Positions 44,869 to 52,842 of a DNA stretch of 64,000 nt are shown piece by piece. The notes beneath the pieces were generated by a model. The model did not search any database. It saw nothing but the letters and a program-made list of their open reading frames with translations, and had not been told where the DNA came from. This stretch comes from Alphaproteobacteria bacterium (GTDB lineage: Bacteria; Pseudomonadota; Alphaproteobacteria; UBA7887), in assembly GCA_965216755.1 (NCBI GenBank), contig CBDCGL010000011.1:1728001-1792000 (forward strand), read 5' to 3'. The stretch's first letter is position 1. Every line of letters starts with the position of its first letter. The position numbers were made by a program, and so were the translations under genes.

Positions 44869-47800
44869 GTGACAGTGATCGATATACGAGAATGGATGAA
44901 AGGCCTGGGCTTGGGCCAATACGCCGATGTGTTCGCACAGAATCACATCGACGAGACCCTATTGCCTGAACTAACCGAAGCCGACCTCGCAGACCTCGGT
45001 CTCAGTCTCGGCCATCGACGCAAACTACTGAAGGCGATTCGTGCGCGCGCTGCGCCGACGCGCGCGCGACCTCCAACACAAAACGAACAAGAGCCCACCG
45101 ACCTGAAGGCGCCGACGGAAAACGACTTGGAGCCGCAGGCCGAACGTCGACAGCTCACCATCATGTTTTGCAATTTGATCGACGCCGACAGGCGATCGGA
45201 GCAAATCGACCCGGAAGACCTGCAGGCTCTTATGCGCGCGTACCAACAGACCGGAACCACCGTAATAGACACCTATGATGGCCACATCGCCCAGTATTTG
45301 GCCGATGGATTCATGGCCTATTTTGGTTGGCCAACGGCACACGAGGACGATGCCGAGCGCGCCATCCGAGCAGCACTTGACATCGTCGAAGCAATCAAGG
45401 CCGTGGATGCGAAACCGAGCCTACACGTTCACATCGGCGTGGCGACCGGCCCCGTCGTCGTTGGGGATTTGGCGCTTGACCAGGCCGTGCACGCTGCGCG
45501 AATTACGCCGGCGCACGCGGTCGGCGCGACGCCCAACCTAGCCGCACGGTTACAGGGCCTTGCCCGCGCCGACGAAATCGTCATCGCGCCGTCGACTCGT
45601 CAACTTGTCGGCGCGGCCTTTGACCTCGAGGACCACGGCGAACACGCGTTGAAAGGCATTGTCGAGCCCGTCCGCGCGTGGCGGATCCGCGGTCTCGCTG
45701 ATATCGCCGGCCGTTTTGAAGCGCGCACGCAGCAGTTAACGCCCCTGGTCGGCCGCCAAAGCGAGATTGCGCTGCTCCTGGAACGTTGGGAAACGGCGAA
45801 AACCGGTGAAGGGCAAGTTGTGCTGCTCAGCGGCGAACCTGGCATCGGGAAAAGCCGAACCACACAAGCCCTACGGCATCACGTCGCCGACCAGGCACAT
45901 ATACGATTACGCTATCAATGTTCTCCTTACTATTCTAATTCGGCGCTCCATCCCTTCATCAATCAGTTTGAAGCTGCTGCACGATTTACGCCGAAGGACA
46001 CAGCTGCGCAAAAGCTTGATAAAGTCGAAAAGGTGCTACGCCAAGCGACGAACGACATAGCCGATATCGCGCCCCTGTTTGCTGCGATGTTGTCTCTGGA
46101 TACGGCAAACCGCTACCCGCCGCTCAACATGACGCCGCAGCAGCAAAAAGATCAAACGCTGCTCGCATTGACAAACCAAATCGAAGCGCTCTCGGAAAAG
46201 CTACCCGTATTGGTGATATTCGAAGATGCCCATTGGGTCGATCCCACGACGCAAGAGGTCTTGGAGCGGCTTATCGGCTGTATCACCAACCGGCGTGTTT
46301 TGCTGGTGATTACTCACAGGCCCGAATATGACGCCAACGCTCTGCATGCGGGCCATGTCACGTCATTGAGCTTGGCGCGGCTGGACCGCCGGCACGCGGC
46401 ATCCATCGCAACGGCCGTCGCGCGTGACACCCGCCTCGCCGATCGCGTTCTCGAACAAATCGTCGCTGGCACCGATGGCGTACCCTTGTTCATCGAAGAA
46501 CTGACGAAAACAGTGATCGAGACGGCCGCAGAGAAATCATCCACGCAAAATCAACCAACCGCGGGCAGCCCGCTACCTCTTTCAATCCCGACCAGTTTGC
46601 AGGATTCGTTGACGGCACGTCTGGACCGATTGGGCCCCGTGAAAGAGGTTGCACAACTTGCGGCAACACTCGGCCGCAGTTTTCGTCATGATCTTCTTCT
46701 CGCCCTGGCGCCAGACAGGCGCGAAGAGCTCGAATCGGCAATTCGGGCATTGGAAGCCGCTGAGCTTATATTCCGCCGCGGCGCTGCGCCCAATATGAGC
46801 TACCAGTTTAAGCACGCACTCGTGCAAGAGGCGGCGTACAACTCGCTCCTGATCAGTCGAAGACAGCGGCATCACGCACATATTGCCCGCACATTGGAGG
46901 CAAGGTTTCCGGAACGCGCGGAAACCGAGCCGGAATACCTGGCCCATCATTACACAGAGGCCGGACTAGCCGAGCAAGCCATCGACCATTGGCTCAAGGC
47001 CGGCCGTCGGTCGACCGAGAATGTCGCGAATGTCGAGGCCGTCGCCCAATTACACCGTGGGCTGGAACTTGTTGAGGCGTTGCCCAAGGATGGTCAACTC
47101 CAACAGCGCAAGGAACTCGATCTGCAGGTGGCCCTCGGGCCATCTCTCATTTCGACACAAGGTTATTTAGCACAGGAAACGGAAGTATGCTACGCGCGTG
47201 CCCTTTCGTTGTGCCACGCGCTTGGTGATCCGCCGGAGTTGTTTCCGATTCTCTATGGGCTATGGGTTATTCGCTTTATCCGTGCCGAGCTCGACAAGGC
47301 CCGAACACTTGGGGAAGATTTCTTGCGACGCGCTAAGGCATCCAAGGATCGGGTCGCTCTCATTTCAGCCCACAGAACTTTGGGATCTGCCCAGTTGGTT
47401 TTGGGAAATTTGTCAGATGCCCGTAAAGATCTGGAGCGCACAATCGAACTTTATGACCCGCAGCGAGATCGCTGGCTCGGTCACGTCTATTCGCTGGACC
47501 CCTACGTCACGGCCAAGGCTTACCTGTCCTGGACCTATTGGTGCCTGGGCTATCCGGGTCGCGCACTCGCCACAATCCGTGACGCGCGTGCCTTTGGTGA
47601 GGACATCTCGCAGCCCTACAGTCTAGCCCTTGAGCTGATGTTTGAAGCGATGATCCAATTCCTGTGCGGCGAGTGGACGCAGGCGCAACATGAGGCAGAG
47701 ACATGCTTGGCTGTCGCGTCCGAACATGGATTCCCGTATTGGCTTGCGTTCACCCATATCGTCAGGGGTTGGGCGCTGATCAAGGGCGGTGAAATTGACA

Positions 47801-48252
47801 CCGGCATGACCGAAGTATTGCGTGGGATCTCACATTACCGTCAAATTGATGGCGGCCTCTATTGGCCAATGGCGCATTGTGCGCTGGCCGATGGGTACAC
47901 GGCACAAGGCCAAATTGAATCGGCGCTCGCCGCGCTTGAAGACGCGACCCAGGCCGCCGCGAACACTAGCGAACATTGGATGGCGCCCGAGACCGTGCGT
48001 CTCAAGGGCGAGATTTTGGCGGAATCGGATATGGCAGCGGCCGAAGCATGCTTTGCCGCCGCAATATTACGGGCGGAAGCGCAAGACGCCAAATCTTGGC
48101 AACTCCGCGCCGCGACATCGCAAGCCCGCCTGTGGCGTCGCCATGGCATGGCCGACAAAGCACGCGATTTGCTCACTCCCATTTACAGCTGGTTCTCGGA
48201 AGGGCTCGAGACCGCCGACCTTCGCGCCGCGAAAGCTCTATTGGCCCCTTAA
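44869..48252 (+). CDS. SAM / class III cyclase / AAA ATPase / TPR-like multidomain protein
   Basis: SAM W..GLGLGQY..F, AERRQLT, AHEDDAERA, PNLAARLQ, Walker A GEPGIGKS, Walker B FEDAHW, Y.FKHALVQ, W.LRAATS. Confidence 0.93.
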   Translation: MTVIDIREWMKGLGLGQYADVFAQNHIDETLLPELTEADLADLGLSLGHRRKLLKAIRARAAPTRARPPTQNEQEPTDLKAPTENDLEPQAERRQLTIMFCNLIDADRRSEQIDPEDLQALMRAYQQTGTTVIDTYDGHIAQYLADGFMAYFGWPTAHEDDAERAIRAALDIVEAIKAVDAKPSLHVHIGVATGPVVVGDLALDQAVHAARITPAHAVGATPNLAARLQGLARADEIVIAPSTRQLVGAAFDLEDHGEHALKGIVEPVRAWRIRGLADIAGRFEARTQQLTPLVGRQSEIALLLERWETAKTGEGQVVLLSGEPGIGKSRTTQALRHHVADQAHIRLRYQCSPYYSNSALHPFINQFEAAARFTPKDTAAQKLDKVEKVLRQATNDIADIAPLFAAMLSLDTANRYPPLNMTPQQQKDQTLLALTNQIEALSEKLPVLVIFEDAHWVDPTTQEVLERLIGCITNRRVLLVITHRPEYDANALHAGHVTSLSLARLDRRHAASIATAVARDTRLADRVLEQIVAGTDGVPLFIEELTKTVIETAAEKSSTQNQPTAGSPLPLSIPTSLQDSLTARLDRLGPVKEVAQLAATLGRSFRHDLLLALAPDRREELESAIRALEAAELIFRRGAAPNMSYQFKHALVQEAAYNSLLISRRQRHHAHIARTLEARFPERAETEPEYLAHHYTEAGLAEQAIDHWLKAGRRSTENVANVEAVAQLHRGLELVEALPKDGQLQQRKELDLQVALGPSLISTQGYLAQETEVCYARALSLCHALGDPPELFPILYGLWVIRFIRAELDKARTLGEDFLRRAKASKDRVALISAHRTLGSAQLVLGNLSDARKDLERTIELYDPQRDRWLGHVYSLDPYVTAKAYLSWTYWCLGYPGRALATIRDARAFGEDISQPYSLALELMFEAMIQFLCGEWTQAQHEAETCLAVASEHGFPYWLAFTHIVRGWALIKGGEIDTGMTEVLRGISHYRQIDGGLYWPMAHCALADGYTAQGQIESALAALEDATQAAANTSEHWMAPETVRLKGEILAESDMAAAEACFAAAILRAEAQDAKSWQLRAATSQARLWRRHGMADKARDLLTPIYSWFSEGLETADLRAAKALLAP

Positions 48253-48293
48253 CGCCAAGCAGCGAACACTCAAGAGCTCGCGCTAGCAGGTTG

Positions 48294-49058
48294 CTAAGCT
48301 TCGATCTCAGGCCAAAGGACGTTGTCGACCTTTGTCAAAGCCGCGTCCAGAGTAACCGGGGTCAACTGTAGGCCGCGCGATACGGCCGTCAACAACAACC
48401 GTTGATCGCCAACCTCGAAAATCCGGCAAAGGGTTTCCTTGTTTTCGTCGTCGTGTATGAGCAGAGATAAAGGTGTCGCCTCGCCACCACGCGCGGCGCG
48501 ATCCGCAAACAACAAAACGAGTGAGGACAATGCGGCCAGGCGATCCAAATCGCGCGCATTGCTGCTGGCTGACAAAGGCAGACCATTGTCATCGCTCAGC
48601 AGCACCGCTTCGAATTGACCCTTTTCCGAAATCTGGTCCAACAGATGGGTTAGGTCGCTGCGACGCCCATGCCCGGTTTGAACATCGGAAAGCTCCAGCG
48701 ACAACCGTTCCCGTTTCATGAGCGGCGTCAAGATATCTTGAACAATGACACGGAGGTCCTCGACTTCCTTGTCACGCCGGACGAGCGGATGAATAGCTTC
48801 CTTAATTATTTCATGAACGCTGTTATTCTGCTCCAGCAAAACTTCGAATGTGCGATCTCGATTTGACGTCAGCGCCTCTGCCGTTGCCTGTTGATAGGCA
48901 AGGTCTTCGCGCGCCCGCATAACGTCGTTCAGCAAACGGCGCGCCTGCTGGCGTAGCCGCGATCGGGCGCGGAACCCCTGCCGAGCTCCGAATATATAGC
49001 CTGCCAATAATAGTGCGGCGCCGGAGCCAACGCCTATGAAGACGATGAACGCGATCAT
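48294..49058 (-). CDS. Membrane-anchored coiled-coil protein with C-terminal roadblock/LC7-like domain
   Basis: N-terminal TM, coiled coil, then LLDQI..KGQFEAVLLSDDNGLPLSAS...DRLAALSSL roadblock pattern. Confidence 0.8.
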   Translation of the reverse strand: MIAFIVFIGVGSGAALLLAGYIFGARQGFRARSRLRQQARRLLNDVMRAREDLAYQQATAEALTSNRDRTFEVLLEQNNSVHEIIKEAIHPLVRRDKEVEDLRVIVQDILTPLMKRERLSLELSDVQTGHGRRSDLTHLLDQISEKGQFEAVLLSDDNGLPLSASSNARDLDRLAALSSLVLLFADRAARGGEATPLSLLIHDDENKETLCRIFEVGDQRLLLTAVSRGLQLTPVTLDAALTKVDNVLWPEIEA

Positions 49059-49963
49059 GATCCTCCCTCCGCGCTCGGTTCTTCACAGACGGCGGCGTCA
49101 TCCACAAACACATGAACACGCCGGTTTGCGCCCGACCACCCCGGCATGCCAACTACAGGCTTTGTTTCTCCAAATCCCGTTCGGCGCAGCCGGTACTCCG
49201 GAACACCCGCGGCCGTCAACATTTCGGCTACCGCCAATGCACGCAGCTGACTGACAGCGAGGTTTCGGTGAACTCCGCCCCAAGAGTCGGCATGCCCTTC
49301 GATAGTCACTATGGCCGATGGGTGGTCACGCAACCATTTTGTTAATCGGGCGATGTCGGCTTGCGGCAAAACTGCTTTAGGTTTGGTGTCGTTAAACCCA
49401 AAATTGACCGACAGCATGGGCGGGCACGATTTTGATCCTGCCGTCGTCGTCGTCCGTGGCGCGATGGACCGATCCGCAGCGTCTACCAGGCCGATACCCG
49501 TGGTATCTCGCATGAGGATCTCTCTCGCATCTTCGAACCGTCCGTACAGCATCAATGCGCGCGCCCGCTGCATCCGTTGTAATCGACTGTCAAGATCCTC
49601 GATGGTCTGATCAATATCGACGTTTAGTGGTGCCCGCCGCGGCGCCACCATCGGCGCTTTGTCGGCCGCGCCGACCAATTTGCCACGGCGCATGTCTTTG
49701 TCCGCCAAAGCAGGCTGTACCATTATCGTCGCTGAGTGCGCTAAAGGCCGTGTCGGCGTCGAACCCGCAACGAATGGCTTCCCTGCAAGTCCCGACCAGA
49801 CTTCGACAAACGACGGCACCTCGCCCCGCGAAAACATGACCCAACCGCCGGCGAATGAAATCATAATCGCCATGATTGCAATGGCTGTTGCCATCGGCGA
49901 CGTAACGGTTTCGCAAAACACGTCAAATTCTTCGGGTATGCGCAAGGCATGATCAGAGAACAT
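49055..49963 (-). CDS. Membrane-anchored OmpA-C (peptidoglycan-binding) protein
   Basis: N-terminal TM; VNFGFN, IEGHADSWG, NL.VSQ.RA.AV, GFGETKP, NRRV. Confidence 0.88.
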   Translation of the reverse strand: MFSDHALRIPEEFDVFCETVTSPMATAIAIMAIMISFAGGWVMFSRGEVPSFVEVWSGLAGKPFVAGSTPTRPLAHSATIMVQPALADKDMRRGKLVGAADKAPMVAPRRAPLNVDIDQTIEDLDSRLQRMQRARALMLYGRFEDAREILMRDTTGIGLVDAADRSIAPRTTTTAGSKSCPPMLSVNFGFNDTKPKAVLPQADIARLTKWLRDHPSAIVTIEGHADSWGGVHRNLAVSQLRALAVAEMLTAAGVPEYRLRRTGFGETKPVVGMPGWSGANRRVHVFVDDAAVCEEPSAEGGS

Positions 49964-50039
49964 CTCAAAACTGGCCTCCCCCGTTTAGCCTCTGGTGCGC
50001 CCGTCATGCGACTGCGGCGGCCGGGACCGTCGAGACCAT

Positions 50040-50801
50040 CTACAATTCAGGCACCCGAAACAGATCGCTCACTACGTCGACGCCGCATTCCAACGTGGCA
50101 CACCAATCAATGAACTTGTTCACCATCTTTTTGCCCTCAAAGACGGCGCCATGTTGCGGAGCAATCATCTCGATATCCAAGGCCCGCACCATTTCGGCCC
50201 ACGCCCGCATGACACGATTTGACGCCATATAGCGGCGATGAAATCCATCCATGAAAGATAGATGGTCGTCGAAATCAGGCACGATTGTGTAATCCATGCC
50301 CAGCGACGCCCCAAGATCGCCGCTGTAAAGGATCTTGGCGACTGGATCGTAAAGCTGAAAATTGCCAACGCTGTGCAGAAAATGGGCAGGCAAGGCCGCC
50401 AACTGGGCGCCATCAAGGTCGAAAACCATGCCTTCGTCGGGGATCGGATGCAAACGCTCTTCAACCAGATGATCAAGCCCGAAATGAGGAACGAAGCGAA
50501 TCCACAATTGCGAAACGTAGGCATCCGCGTCCGTGGTCATAAGCCAACCATTGACGGCCGCGACAATGTCCGGATCTTGATGAGACAGGAATATATACCG
50601 CAACGACATGCGTCCCAGCAGCGACATCGTCGCACCGAGGACCTTGCCATAAACCTTGTGGCCGCCGGGATCCAATATCATGCCCGACTCGCCATGGATG
50701 ATAACGTGCTGATTGGCTTGCACCGCCAGGCCACCAAGTCCAAAGTCTTCAAGCATGATGTTTTGATGGGTACCGTCGTCATAGAGGACAGTGTTTGGCA
50801 T
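50040..50801 (-). CDS. MBL-fold di-iron protein, ODP (oxygen-binding di-iron protein)-like
   Basis: VQANQ, LDPGG, SHQDPDI, AHFLHS.GNF, YSGDLG, FHRRYM, APQHG; no flavodoxin domain. Confidence 0.88.
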   Translation of the reverse strand: MPNTVLYDDGTHQNIMLEDFGLGGLAVQANQHVIIHGESGMILDPGGHKVYGKVLGATMSLLGRMSLRYIFLSHQDPDIVAAVNGWLMTTDADAYVSQLWIRFVPHFGLDHLVEERLHPIPDEGMVFDLDGAQLAALPAHFLHSVGNFQLYDPVAKILYSGDLGASLGMDYTIVPDFDDHLSFMDGFHRRYMASNRVMRAWAEMVRALDIEMIAPQHGAVFEGKKMVNKFIDWCATLECGVDVVSDLFRVPEL

Positions 50802-50865
50802 TCCGGCTCCTTTCTACGACATCGGGACATCATTGATCTCTGGCGACGCCCCGGCCCACGCAAAC

Positions 50866-51264
50866 TCACAGAATGTTTTGAATATTGCTGATGGTCTCAC
50901 GCATATCGAAAAAGATGAGCCCCAGCTTGGCGTTATCGTTGGCCACAACCAGCAGCAAAACACCGCGCCCGGCGTCAATCAGAACCGCATAACCTTGCTC
51001 ACCGCGAACGACGACCTCTTCAACGGTGCCACGGCCCAACTCCGCCGCGCCGCGCGTGCCGAGGCTGAGAATTGTCGCGCTCATGCCCGCGACCCGCGTT
51101 TCGTCCAGGTGTTCCGGAAGTGAACTCGCGATCATCAATCCGTCTTCCGAAATTAGCGCTGCCGCTTCGACGTCCGGCGATCCGGTTTGCAATGATCGCA
51201 ACACGTTGGTCAGGTTTTCCGTACGGTTCAGAGAAAACGCCTTGCGTGTGGCCTCGCGTGCCAT
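50866..51264 (-). CDS. Roadblock/LC7 (MglB-like) protein
   Basis: PDVEAAALISEDGLMIAS, RVAGMSATILSLG.R...ELGRG, AKLGLIF.DM; AGGAG RBS. Confidence 0.92.
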   Translation of the reverse strand: MAREATRKAFSLNRTENLTNVLRSLQTGSPDVEAAALISEDGLMIASSLPEHLDETRVAGMSATILSLGTRGAAELGRGTVEEVVVRGEQGYAVLIDAGRGVLLLVVANDNAKLGLIFFDMRETISNIQNIL

Positions 51265-52632
51265 CGTCTCGCTCCTATTCACAGATTGGTCGTGTAGGCG
51301 ACCTGGTCTAAGTCGGATTGCCATGGTTCGCTGACATCTTGGTGAGTCGATTGATAAGCAAAAAAGTCGCGCGCCATAGGGCTGACGGCCTGGCGCGGCG
51401 TGGGCGATATTCGTTTCGTTGTCGCGCGCGGCGCGCCGCCCGCAAATGTCGGACACTTCGTTCGAGTGAATGAATGTTCACCTCTGGCGCACGCGGCGCG
51501 ACGCGCGCTTGAGCTGACGCCGCGCTATTCTGACAGGATGAACGCTCTCCCAAATCTGACAAAACATCCCGCTCCTTGCGCCAGCGATACTGTTCCGTAA
51601 GAGAAATATTTGCTTAAGCATATACCTACACACGGGTCGTCAGATTGACTTCGGTTAAGTGTCGCAAGATTTCACAAGGTCAATTCCTCACGAATCGGTA
51701 TCCTGCTGCCTACTAGTTGATGCCATGACACCCAAATAGGTGACAAGTCGCCGCTTCAATCGATATGCCCAAATAATTGGACATAGTTTATTAGTTTGAA
51801 CCTATCTAACGTTTTGCAATGATCCGAATGACTACATTCAAGCCGCAGCAGCGCGGTGCTGCCGGACCGTTCGACACAGGGCGTCAGATCAAGCTGCTAT
51901 TGTTATCGTAGCAATTATCTTTGCGACATTCATATCCACACATATTTTAAAGTTATTTTTGACGACCGCGAATTTGGCTTTAAACAAACGATTGATTTAA
52001 ACATGCGACCAAGTGACAGCCCGGTCGCAGCGGGCGTCGTATGGAATTGCACAAGGCGCGGCACTGGTATGGCTGATCTTTGTCGCGCGCGGACACAAGA
52101 TGGCACCTTGACGCTTAGCCCGATGAAGCAGTCGGGACATTGACATACGATTGGGACACTAGCGAAGCGATAACAATTTGATCCATGGAATGGATCTGGT
52201 CCTTGTTTCACCAAAGGTCTGGCTGAGCGCCGCGCAAGTATGGAACGGCCTCTTTGCGATTGGCCGACAAGGCATCTCGGAACTGCTAGCGCGGCTTCAC
52301 CTGCCATTCGGCGGCGCTGATATCAGCTTGTCACTGTTTGATTTTTCTTTTTCATTCGCCCGACACCGCGCAATGACCGGGCGCCTAACTACAGCTTGGT
52401 CGCGCGAAGCAATGCCTGACAGACGCTTTTTTGCAGTGAAACACTTGATGGGGCGACCAAATTGCCGCAAAATCAACAATGTTGAGTGGAGACGTATCGC
52501 ATGTGTTTCGCGATGATTGAATTGCCGTTGACCCGGTAAGCTCGGTTCCTTCCGACATTGTGAGCGTTGAAACGATCCCGCAGCCCACTCAGACGGGTTG
52601 CGTTCTTCCAAATCTCTGTCAGAGGTATGCTT

Positions 52633-52842
52633 ATGCCTACCGGAACTGTGAAATGGTTCAATCCCACGAAGGGATATGGGTTCATCGAACCGGAAGATGG
52701 CTCGAAGGATGCCTTCGTGCACATTTCCGCTGTCCAACGCGCAGGCCTAACCGGGCTCAGCGAAGGACAGAAAGTGTCATACGAATTGCAGACTGGACAA
52801 AACGGCAAGTCATCCGCCGAGAACTTGTCGTTGGTCGACTAG
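52633..52842 (+). CDS. cspA: Cold-shock protein
   Basis: [32 protein letters not shown]. Confidence 0.95.

Follow-up and report, generated by a model that had tools for sequence, protein, structure and literature searches.

A conserved gene cassette of two Roadblock proteins, an ODP and an OmpA_C anchor in an alphaproteobacterium: a putative GTPase-less, envelope-spanning signaling module

A 64,000-nucleotide stretch of an Alphaproteobacteria bacterium genome (GTDB lineage UBA7887; GenBank assembly GCA_965216755.1, contig CBDCGL010000011.1, positions 1,728,001 to 1,792,000 of the forward strand), hereafter the window and the frame of all positions given, was found to carry a cassette of four co-oriented minus-strand genes at 48294-51264. 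The open reading frame (ORF) list and the translations gave, in order of transcription, a soluble Roadblock/LC7 protein (RB1), a single-domain MBL-fold di-iron protein (ODP), a protein with one transmembrane (TM) helix and a predicted periplasmic OmpA_C domain (the OmpA protein), and a membrane protein whose C-terminus is predicted to adopt a second Roadblock fold (TMRB). The cassette is real, conserved, widespread, and uncharacterized in the literature searched, and its four genes near-certainly form one functional unit. With about even confidence, we read them as encoding an envelope-spanning signaling module that works without a GTPase, in which ODP would act through RB1 on a platform of TMRB and the OmpA protein pinned to the cell wall. 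As such, the cassette is a variant within the known ODP-based and Roadblock-based signaling systems.

Gene order was read by tblastn with the four window proteins in the best 80 of 571 stretches that contain an ODP relative in species-representative genomes, and a locus was taken to have room for the full cassette when at least 3.5 kb lay downstream. RB1 was directly upstream of ODP in 77/80 of these loci (the three misses include L006, where the room is lacking), and the OmpA and TMRB genes both followed downstream, in the same order, in 64/80; TMRB alone was present in two loci and neither gene in 14, three of which are without room. All four genes stood in order in 57 of the 68 ODP-seeded loci with room. 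An independent sample of metagenome contigs seeded with RB1 had ODP within 1 kb downstream of RB1 in 34/38 loci with room, and all four genes in 18 of the 20 loci with room for them. A preliminary description of this DNA, made from the sequence alone, had named a lack of co-conservation elsewhere as one of the outcomes that would refute it; the four genes proved to be co-conserved in the same order in several phyla. The overlap between the OmpA-gene stop and the TMRB start was inferred in 38/64 loci (4 nt in 33, 1 nt in five), with TMRB starts extrapolated from alignments. The ODP, RB1, and TMRB distance matrices were correlated (Mantel r 0.72-0.82, 0/999 permutations as high; 46 sequences, namely 45 loci and the window), which fits inheritance or transfer of the cassette as a unit, with shared ancestry also contributing to the correlation. 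Sequence constraint was much stronger on ODP and RB1 (mean column identity 78% and 68%, 58 sequences each) than on TMRB (35%) and on the OmpA protein (25%, 46 sequences).

In the window, RB1 (132 aa) is encoded at 50866..51264, ODP (253 aa) at 50040..50801, the OmpA protein (302 aa) at 49055..49963, and TMRB (254 aa) at 48294..49058, all on the minus strand. The intergenic gaps are 64 nt between RB1 and ODP (50802-50865) and 76 nt between ODP and the OmpA gene (49964-50039), and the stop codon of the OmpA gene and the start codon of TMRB share an ATGA overlap at 49055..49058, indicative of translational coupling. The RB1 frame is open over 50866..51456; the ATG at 51264 was chosen as start, is preceded by AGGAG at 51276-51272, and lies at about the same residue as the beginning of RB1 homologs in a 58-sequence alignment. 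Shine-Dalgarno-like motifs of the GGAG type were also identified upstream of the ODP and OmpA starts, so that three starts carry one. Because of the short gaps, the 4-nt overlap, and these motifs, a single operon is the best reading of the locus as predicted from its sequence. The co-orientation, gaps, and overlap of the preliminary description matched the ORF coordinates, and the domain composition that it proposed (Roadblock, ODP, TM-OmpA_C, and TM/coiled-coil Roadblock) was upheld by family profiles, by alignment to solved ODPs, and by the structural model and Foldseek matches of TMRB.

ODP matched PF19583 over the complete profile (positions 1-194 of 194; 233.7 bits, 2.1e-69, against a cut-off of 27.2). 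Its residues 3-249 aligned to 4-252 of 6qrq_B (E 2.1e-71) and residues 3-248 to 8-255 of 6qnm_A (E 1.3e-63), and the SHQDPD, HFLH, SGD, and PQHG motifs of the translation aligned with the identical motifs (HQDPD, HFLH, SGD, PQHG) of both solved proteins. The ligand motifs HxDxD, HxxH, D, and H are what we take to be the iron-ligating residues of ODP, and H74, D76, D78, H140, H143, D162, and H217 were invariant in the 58 ODP sequences. The profile scan found one 253-aa MBL-fold domain and neither a flavodoxin nor a rubredoxin module, in agreement with the earlier claim of a standalone MBL protein with ODP-type ligands. Since ODP is a full-length family member with invariant metal-ligand motifs, sensing of O2/Fe(II) is a reasonable prediction. 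The ODPs studied so far are described as sensors that stabilize an iron-peroxy species, and the TREND paper states that ODP operons contain chemoreceptors and 'different signal transduction related genes'.

The ODPs of Treponema denticola and Thermotoga maritima (6QNM, 6QRQ) share family, length, and ligand motifs with the window protein and are likewise stand-alone sensors encoded beside a signaling partner. They are described as adjoining chemoreceptor genes and acting on chemotaxis, whereas the present clade adjoins a Roadblock gene and a wall-anchored membrane pair; MCP or Che genes were absent from the recurrent neighbors of the cassette. A word-indexed search returned 4355 ODP relatives at E<=0.001 among 4855 candidates, the best 119 non-self matches being 71-79% identical and the few organism-named ones among them spanning several phyla. 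ODPs of about 45% identity without a Roadblock neighbor were found in Acinetobacter and Eleftheria, where they adjoin a TonB-dependent receptor/YkgJ gene or a GGDEF gene. The Roadblock link is particular to this ODP clade. The host genome itself holds one strong ODP match, one Roadblock match, and one TMRB copy.

RB1 matched Robl_LC7 (PF03259) with 58.5 bits (5.4e-16; cut-off 23). The nearest solved relatives of the RB1 family profile were archaeal Robl (7f8m, 7e-35; 9jue, 2e-21) and Streptomyces CvnB5 (3leq, 9e-16), with MglB matched at about 6e-4 only. By these profile comparisons RB1 is closer to archaeal Robl/CvnB than to MglB, and of its earlier designation as an MglB-like Roadblock protein the family assignment stood and the likeness to MglB did not. 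RB1 is the sole part found in every version of the cassette. Given that RB1 and ODP occur together without the anchor, and RB1 and the anchor without ODP, RB1 may be a hub that has ODP as one partner and, as its second, an effector or the membrane pair.

The versions without the anchor comprise RB1 (about 33% identical) and ODP at six loci (L055, L056, L063, L079, L080, and L083). Loci of the delta/Myxococcota type (L038, L047, L070) have the order PAS kinase, RB1, ODP, REC-DUF4388, OmpA, TMRB, with L052 lacking the kinase cluster, and two others (L066, L076) carry a kinase, RB1, ODP, a ParA-like ATPase, and one more protein. ODP was missing from L144:2979-8133, encoding OmpA, TMRB, RB1, a PAS histidine kinase, and REC-DUF4388, and from L136:3245-6323, encoding a HerA-like NTPase, RB1, and TMRB. 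RB1 was further found as a fusion protein: its ORF was 306-626 aa long and included an AAA_22-type P-loop domain in 13/80 loci, and AAA_22 lay within 1.2 kb upstream of RB1 in 12 of the 32 RB1-seeded loci. Among 120 listed longer RB1 homologs, 93 matched PF13401 (AAA_22), three PF00111 (2Fe-2S ferredoxin; N-terminal in P0128, P0137, and P0141), three PF00072 (receiver domain, REC; P0199, P0201, and P0207), and one a rhomboid domain (P0183), the other 20 being Roadblock only. The Roadblock domain was C-terminal in each of the seven longer homologs scanned for fusion order. The AAA_22 part matched TIGR03015 (PEP-CTERM system ATPase) at 2e-39 with 135 bits, under the cut-off of 324.5, and such fusions bear the JGI label 'type II secretory pathway predicted ATPase ExeA'. 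A metagenome scan seeded with P0128 gave no locus matching the ferredoxin part.

The OmpA protein matched PF00691 at residues 202-278 (53.2 bits, 3.8e-14; cut-off 27.2). Its predicted structure comprised a TM helix at 22-45 and disordered linkers of the Pro/Ala type, with a helical hairpin spanning 117-156 and, modeled with confidence at about 180-290, an OmpA_C-like fold. The OmpA_C domain must lie in the periplasm. A hydrophobic segment was scored in 57 of the 64 OmpA frames, read from stop to stop in the related loci. Residues C180, F188, G223, D226, G229, N234, S238, R241, G265, and C293 were invariant in 46 homologs, and D226 and R241 presumably occupy the positions of the residue pair with which OmpA_C domains bind peptidoglycan. 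Cysteines C180 and C293 lie on either side of the OmpA_C domain and are present in 46/46 aligned homologs; a periplasmic disulfide clamp between them is possible and would be noteworthy in a system putatively linked to oxygen. A MotB-like character had been suggested earlier, and the topology agrees with it. However, the TM helix contains neither Asp nor Glu, the neighbors are ODP and TMRB only with no MotA-like gene, and the MotB and MotD NCBIfam scores were far under their cut-offs. A stator of the MotB/ExbD/TolR type was ruled out for lack of an acidic residue in the TM helix and of a MotA/ExbB/TolQ-type partner.

TMRB consists of an N-terminal TM helix, a coiled coil of about 100 residues, and a C-terminal domain that scored 17.6 bits against Robl_LC7 (PF03259), under the cut-off of 23. 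The model (pLDDT 91.6) showed a long helix at 2-124, covering the TM segment and the coiled coil, and then, at 134-253, an alpha/beta domain of alpha-beta-beta-alpha-beta-beta-beta-alpha topology. The top Foldseek matches of this domain in the PDB were MglB chains (6izw_B, 6hjm; E 3e-7, prob 1.00), and MP1-p14, Ragulator, and archaeal Roadblock proteins also matched with probability 1.00 and target TM-scores of 0.6-0.7. The modeled C-terminus of TMRB is accordingly of predicted Roadblock fold. A basic stretch directly follows the TM helix in the translation, which gives both the coiled coil and the Roadblock domain a cytoplasmic location (N-out, C-in). With a periplasmic OmpA_C domain and a cytoplasmic TMRB domain the two TM helices would run antiparallel and could pack, and the alignments displayed small-residue motifs in the TM helices of both proteins. 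The TMRB family has 378 representatives at E<=1e-3 and 168 at <=1e-30 in a library of 1.84 billion proteins. Longer TMRB forms, such as OmpA-TMRB in one protein, were absent from the 7999 scored candidates, which is weak evidence. At one locus, L058:6849-8246, OmpA and TMRB read as a single 465-codon frame, and the sibling copy L060 of the same metagenome-assembled genome has the usual 4-nt overlap; a sequencing error is possible at L058. In-frame stops interrupt the TMRB homolog L013:7561-8199 and the OmpA homolog L015:2422-3411, whose rows were left out of the alignments, and the oddities of L013, L015, and L058 may reflect pseudogenes or sequencing errors.

The host genome, which is 99.8% complete, was examined for partners encoded elsewhere. 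PF00071 (Ras) and PF00025 (Arf) matched only open frames of 609 and 892 aa, taken to be translation-type GTPases, Roc (PF08477) had no match, and no DUF4388/PATAN protein was present in this genome. No GTPase gene was among the recurrent neighbors of the 80 loci. The preliminary description had connected the Roadblock proteins with small GTPases and with polarity or motility; for this genome the GTPase link was not borne out, RB1 being Robl/CvnB-like, and the polarity link lost its support with the missing DUF4388/PATAN protein. The guess is not absurd for the wider family, because related versions carry a kinase with REC-DUF4388 or a ParA. AAA_22 was not found in the window (best tblastn E 0.3), the nearest relative in the genome being 32% identical (E 3.5e-33) and about 615 kb away. 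The window thus carries the cassette in its minimal form of four genes, none of which encodes a recognizable output. The distant AAA_22 relative is a 1439-aa AAA_22/coiled-coil/ankyrin-repeat protein (G000:C11, about 1157.5-1164.3 kb; L089: 2488-9347), and it is flanked by an OmpA-family gene (196 aa) and an M48 peptidase (607 aa), all on one strand, as a second OmpA/AAA_22 pairing.

In the proposed module, ODP would use its di-iron site to sense O2 and/or Fe(II) in the cytoplasm, as suggested by its family membership and by the role published for ODPs. RB1 would be its dedicated adaptor and bind it, a contact to which the near-constant adjacency (77/80), the joint conservation, and the pairing of the two when all else is absent point. 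TMRB, oriented N-out and C-in in the inner membrane, would offer a second cytoplasmic Roadblock domain for pairing with RB1, as suggested by the dimerization of Roadblock domains (MglB, Ragulator) and by the ODP-less versions L144 and L136. The TM helix of TMRB would in turn pair with that of the translationally coupled OmpA_C protein and so pin the assembly to peptidoglycan; the topology, the coupling, and the invariant D226 and R241 argue for this step. The oxygen or iron state of ODP would then alter the occupancy or conformation of the platform. In other lineages RB1 comes with a candidate effector, either fused to it (the ExeA-like AAA_22 ATPase, REC, or 2Fe-2S ferredoxin) or encoded next to it (a kinase with REC-DUF4388 or a ParA), and the platform may feed the kinase/REC-DUF4388 pair. 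That the output in the present genome is polarity or motility appears rather unlikely. A tentative extension, possible rather than probable, regards this as a GTPase-free use of the Roadblock fold: a di-iron sensor of gas or iron would have RB1 as its universal plug, and the wall-pinned TMRB domain would be the socket. The whole would be a bacterial counterpart of Ragulator that holds sensing, and in many lineages also an ExeA-like ATPase, a receiver, or a ferredoxin, at immobile wall sites, where O2 or iron status would be read as protein relocation or as a signal across the inner membrane to a peptidoglycan-bound partner.

Several points weigh against this module. Binding of O2 or Fe(II) is established for two ODPs only (6qrq, 6qnm), which are far less similar to the window protein than the members of its clade. 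The protein contacts, the direction of the signal, and the output are all inferred, and no contact was convincingly predicted. Similarity between the Roadblock domains of RB1 and TMRB is remote (hhalign E 0.01, probability 4%), and their pairing would follow from the general habit of Roadblock proteins. The cassette of the window is without a recognizable output domain, and the sole adjacent signaling gene (44869-48252) is present in 0/80 related loci. The anchor, or part of it, is missing from 11/68 loci with room, so that it is not obligatory for RB1-ODP. Among relatives of the host, moreover, there was no match at E<=1e-40 in 22 same-family genomes and no close copy in 300 same-class genomes, eight of which match at E<=1e-30, all with 38-44% identity. 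This absence implies that the cassette is dispensable and, together with the lower regional GC content, that it was probably acquired horizontally.

The sensor itself could be an enzyme, with ODP turning over O2, H2O2, or NO, RB1 docking an electron donor, and the membrane pair holding the enzyme near the respiratory chain. The MBL/di-iron core is common to flavodiiron proteins, close homologs are named 'flavorubredoxin' or 'FprA family A-type flavoprotein', and the three RB1 homologs with an N-terminal 2Fe-2S ferredoxin would supply a natural donor; many carriers are, moreover, named for groups that dwell at the oxic-anoxic interface (methanotrophs, nitrifiers, and purple bacteria). We nevertheless consider a redox enzyme unlikely, in view of the single 253-aa domain without flavodoxin or rubredoxin, the end-to-end alignment with solved ODPs that are described as sensors, the rarity of ferredoxin fusions (3/120 listed against 93/120 with AAA_22), and the kinase and response-regulator neighbors of other versions, which indicate signaling. 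Distinctly unlikely is a split assembly factor of the ExeA/GspA kind, whose AAA_22 ATPase would be connected through Roadblock pairing to the peptidoglycan-binding pair and would prepare the wall, by remodeling or marking it, for the assembly of a trans-envelope machine under oxygen gating by ODP; the window would then hold a reduced version that lost its ATPase or draws on one encoded elsewhere. Such a factor would explain the AAA_22 fused to RB1 (13/80) or upstream of it (12/32), the TIGR03015 match at 2e-39 with the ExeA naming by JGI, the ExeA architecture of an ATPase, a TM segment, and a peptidoglycan-binding domain, and the AAA_22 of the same genome (32%, E 3.5e-33) in a 1439-aa protein that adjoins another OmpA gene. 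It is difficult to reconcile with a window cassette devoid of an ATPase, with 60 of the 72 loci with room being without the fusion, with a TIGR03015 score of 135 against 324.5 bits, and with the lack of recurrent secretin, pilus, or secretion genes beside the cassette in the 80 loci.

A classical MglB-type system, in which the two Roadblock proteins serve as GTPase-activating protein or scaffold for a small Ras-like GTPase governing polarity or motility, is very improbable and largely refuted for this genome: its Ras/Arf matches are confined to the 609-aa and 892-aa frames, Roc and DUF4388 are missing, no GTPase recurs beside the 80 loci, and RB1 is nearer to Robl/CvnB, against which stand the MglB chains as best fold match of TMRB and the REC-DUF4388 regulators accompanying the cassette in Myxococcota-type loci. 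The chance that the cassette serves anti-phage defense or another kind of conflict, with its sensor anchored in the wall in the manner of ZorB-like anchors, is smaller still and appears very slight. ODP is highly conserved (78%), unlike fast-evolving defense proteins; PADLOC had no match for RB1, ODP, TMRB, or the AAA_22 fusion, the cassette is devoid of any effector, be it a nuclease, a protease, or a TIR domain, and plasmids held no close ODP copy (11 records, all <60% identity). A patchy distribution consistent with horizontal transfer, weak ZorB/MotB PADLOC matches of the OmpA domain (6.9e-6), and the STAND-type NTPase-TPR genes that adjoin the cassette in the window, L054, L060, and L062 speak for defense.

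Compared with characterized systems, the envelope-spanning module has several partial counterparts. The MglA/MglB (MglC) systems of Myxococcus and Thermus share with it the Roadblock fold and the use of paired Roadblock proteins, but this genome has no MglA-type GTPase and one of its Roadblock domains is membrane-tethered and wall-anchored. Ragulator-Rag (LAMTOR) is alike on paper as a membrane-tethered platform of Roadblock heterodimers, and MP1-p14 and Ragulator were among the fold matches of TMRB. Ragulator docks NTPases that bear their own C-terminal Roadblock domain, and the AAA_22-Roadblock fusions share this domain order with Rag-type NTPases. The homology is limited to the fold, however; the NTPase is an AAA_22 ATPase rather than a Rag GTPase and is not encoded in the window, and the cassette differs in its peptidoglycan anchoring and its di-iron sensor. 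In ExeA/GspA-ExeB, a cytoplasmic AAA_22-type ATPase is connected with a peptidoglycan-binding domain on the far side of the inner membrane, whereas here each of the three functions has a protein of its own, with Roadblock and TM pairing as the presumed links; the window is without the ATPase, and no secretion genes are nearby. The Streptomyces conservon (CvnA-D) is likewise an operon built on a Roadblock protein and a membrane sensor, and the RB1 profile matches its CvnB5 (3leq, 9e-16), but the cassette has no CvnA-type kinase, DUF742 protein, or CvnD GTPase.

The nearest described architecture is Group 1 Rup, a computationally defined neighborhood with a coiled-coil protein and an inner-membrane protein whose TM helix connects a periplasmic OmpA domain with a cytoplasmic domain of unknown function (PMC4316618). 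Both thus place a wall-anchored inner-membrane OmpA protein and a coiled-coil protein in a signaling operon. Group 1 Rup centers on a Ras-like GTPase and an output enzyme, neither of which is conserved in the cassette, where the anchor is split over two genes and ODP and RB1 provide the input. The same study counted 328 orphan MglB homologs, with none characterized (Wuichet and Sogaard-Andersen, 2014; PMC4316618). According to a 2026 preprint, MglA is displaced by ParA in MglB-centered systems, which fits the ParA version of L066 and L076. No paper joining ODP with Roadblock proteins was present in the literature searched, in keeping with the preliminary description, whose author knew of no characterized system of such composition; Muok et al. 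(2019) and its supplements lay outside that search and may list Roadblock neighbors.

ODP is among the few known non-heme oxygen/iron sensors and has been studied in chemotaxis only; through the cassette, the orphan Roadblock proteins acquire a definite partner and a role that can be put to the test. Its reach extends to hundreds of environmental species (571 ODP relatives, 378 TMRB representatives). If the platform model is true, the cassette would reveal how a gas sensor of the bacterial cytoplasm can be held at a fixed site, and the "platform" logic of the eukaryotic Ragulator would have a GTPase-free bacterial form.

Carriers were labeled Gamma-, Beta-, and Alphaproteobacteria, delta/Myxococcota, and Terracidiphilus (Acidobacteriota), with one bin assigned to Acidimicrobiales, and cultured Bradyrhizobium and Methylocystis strains were among them, such as Bradyrhizobium sp. 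ORS 375, B. oligotrophicum, and Methylocystis sp. B8. The titles of the carriers (L005-L084) include the methanotrophs Methylococcaceae and Methylocystis, the nitrifier Nitrosomonas, and the purple bacteria Chromatiaceae, Rhodomicrobium, and Rhodoblastus, as well as Bradyrhizobium and the activated-sludge Competibacter, Defluviicoccus, and Dechloromonas. These groups presumably live at oxic-anoxic interfaces, several of them with intracytoplasmic membranes, and the Bradyrhizobium carrier strains are presumably photosynthetic. No mobile-element gene or tRNA was seen by the cassette, and neither Rfam families nor tRNAs were detected in the window.

Upstream of RB1, a gene-poor region of 1.3 kb (51265..52566) extends toward a divergent cold-shock gene at about 52630-52842 (+) and is presumed to hold the cassette promoter. 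Its GC content is 0.53-0.55, against about 0.60-0.62 in the flanks, and it includes an AT-rich block near 51760-52000 and no convincing ORF. No sigma-70-like site was scored in 51265..52566, the sole one in 47800-52600 being at 48392-48365, and a scan for promoter and terminator consensus gave sites no more numerous than in shuffled sequences, the terminator-like ones falling within coding sequence. Consensus patterns for FNR/FixK, Fur, Irr, and sigma-54 sites matched over 51265-52600 with two mismatches or more weakly, about chance by our own estimate; the one FNR/FixK-like match in the upstream region has two mismatches and is at about chance level.

On the other side, the cassette faces a convergent gene at 44869-48252 (+), with 41 nt between the stop codons, encoding a 1127-aa SAM/adenylate-guanylate cyclase/AAA_16/TPR (STAND-like) protein. 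This gene was rejected as a component of the cassette because it occurs beside it in none of the 80 related loci. Likewise rejected was a GrpE homolog (an over-long ORF) situated just upstream of RB1 and on the same strand in seven alphaproteobacterial loci (L048, L049, L051, L064, L065, L068, and L074); it looks like a housekeeping grpE, and its position probably reflects shared synteny rather than function.

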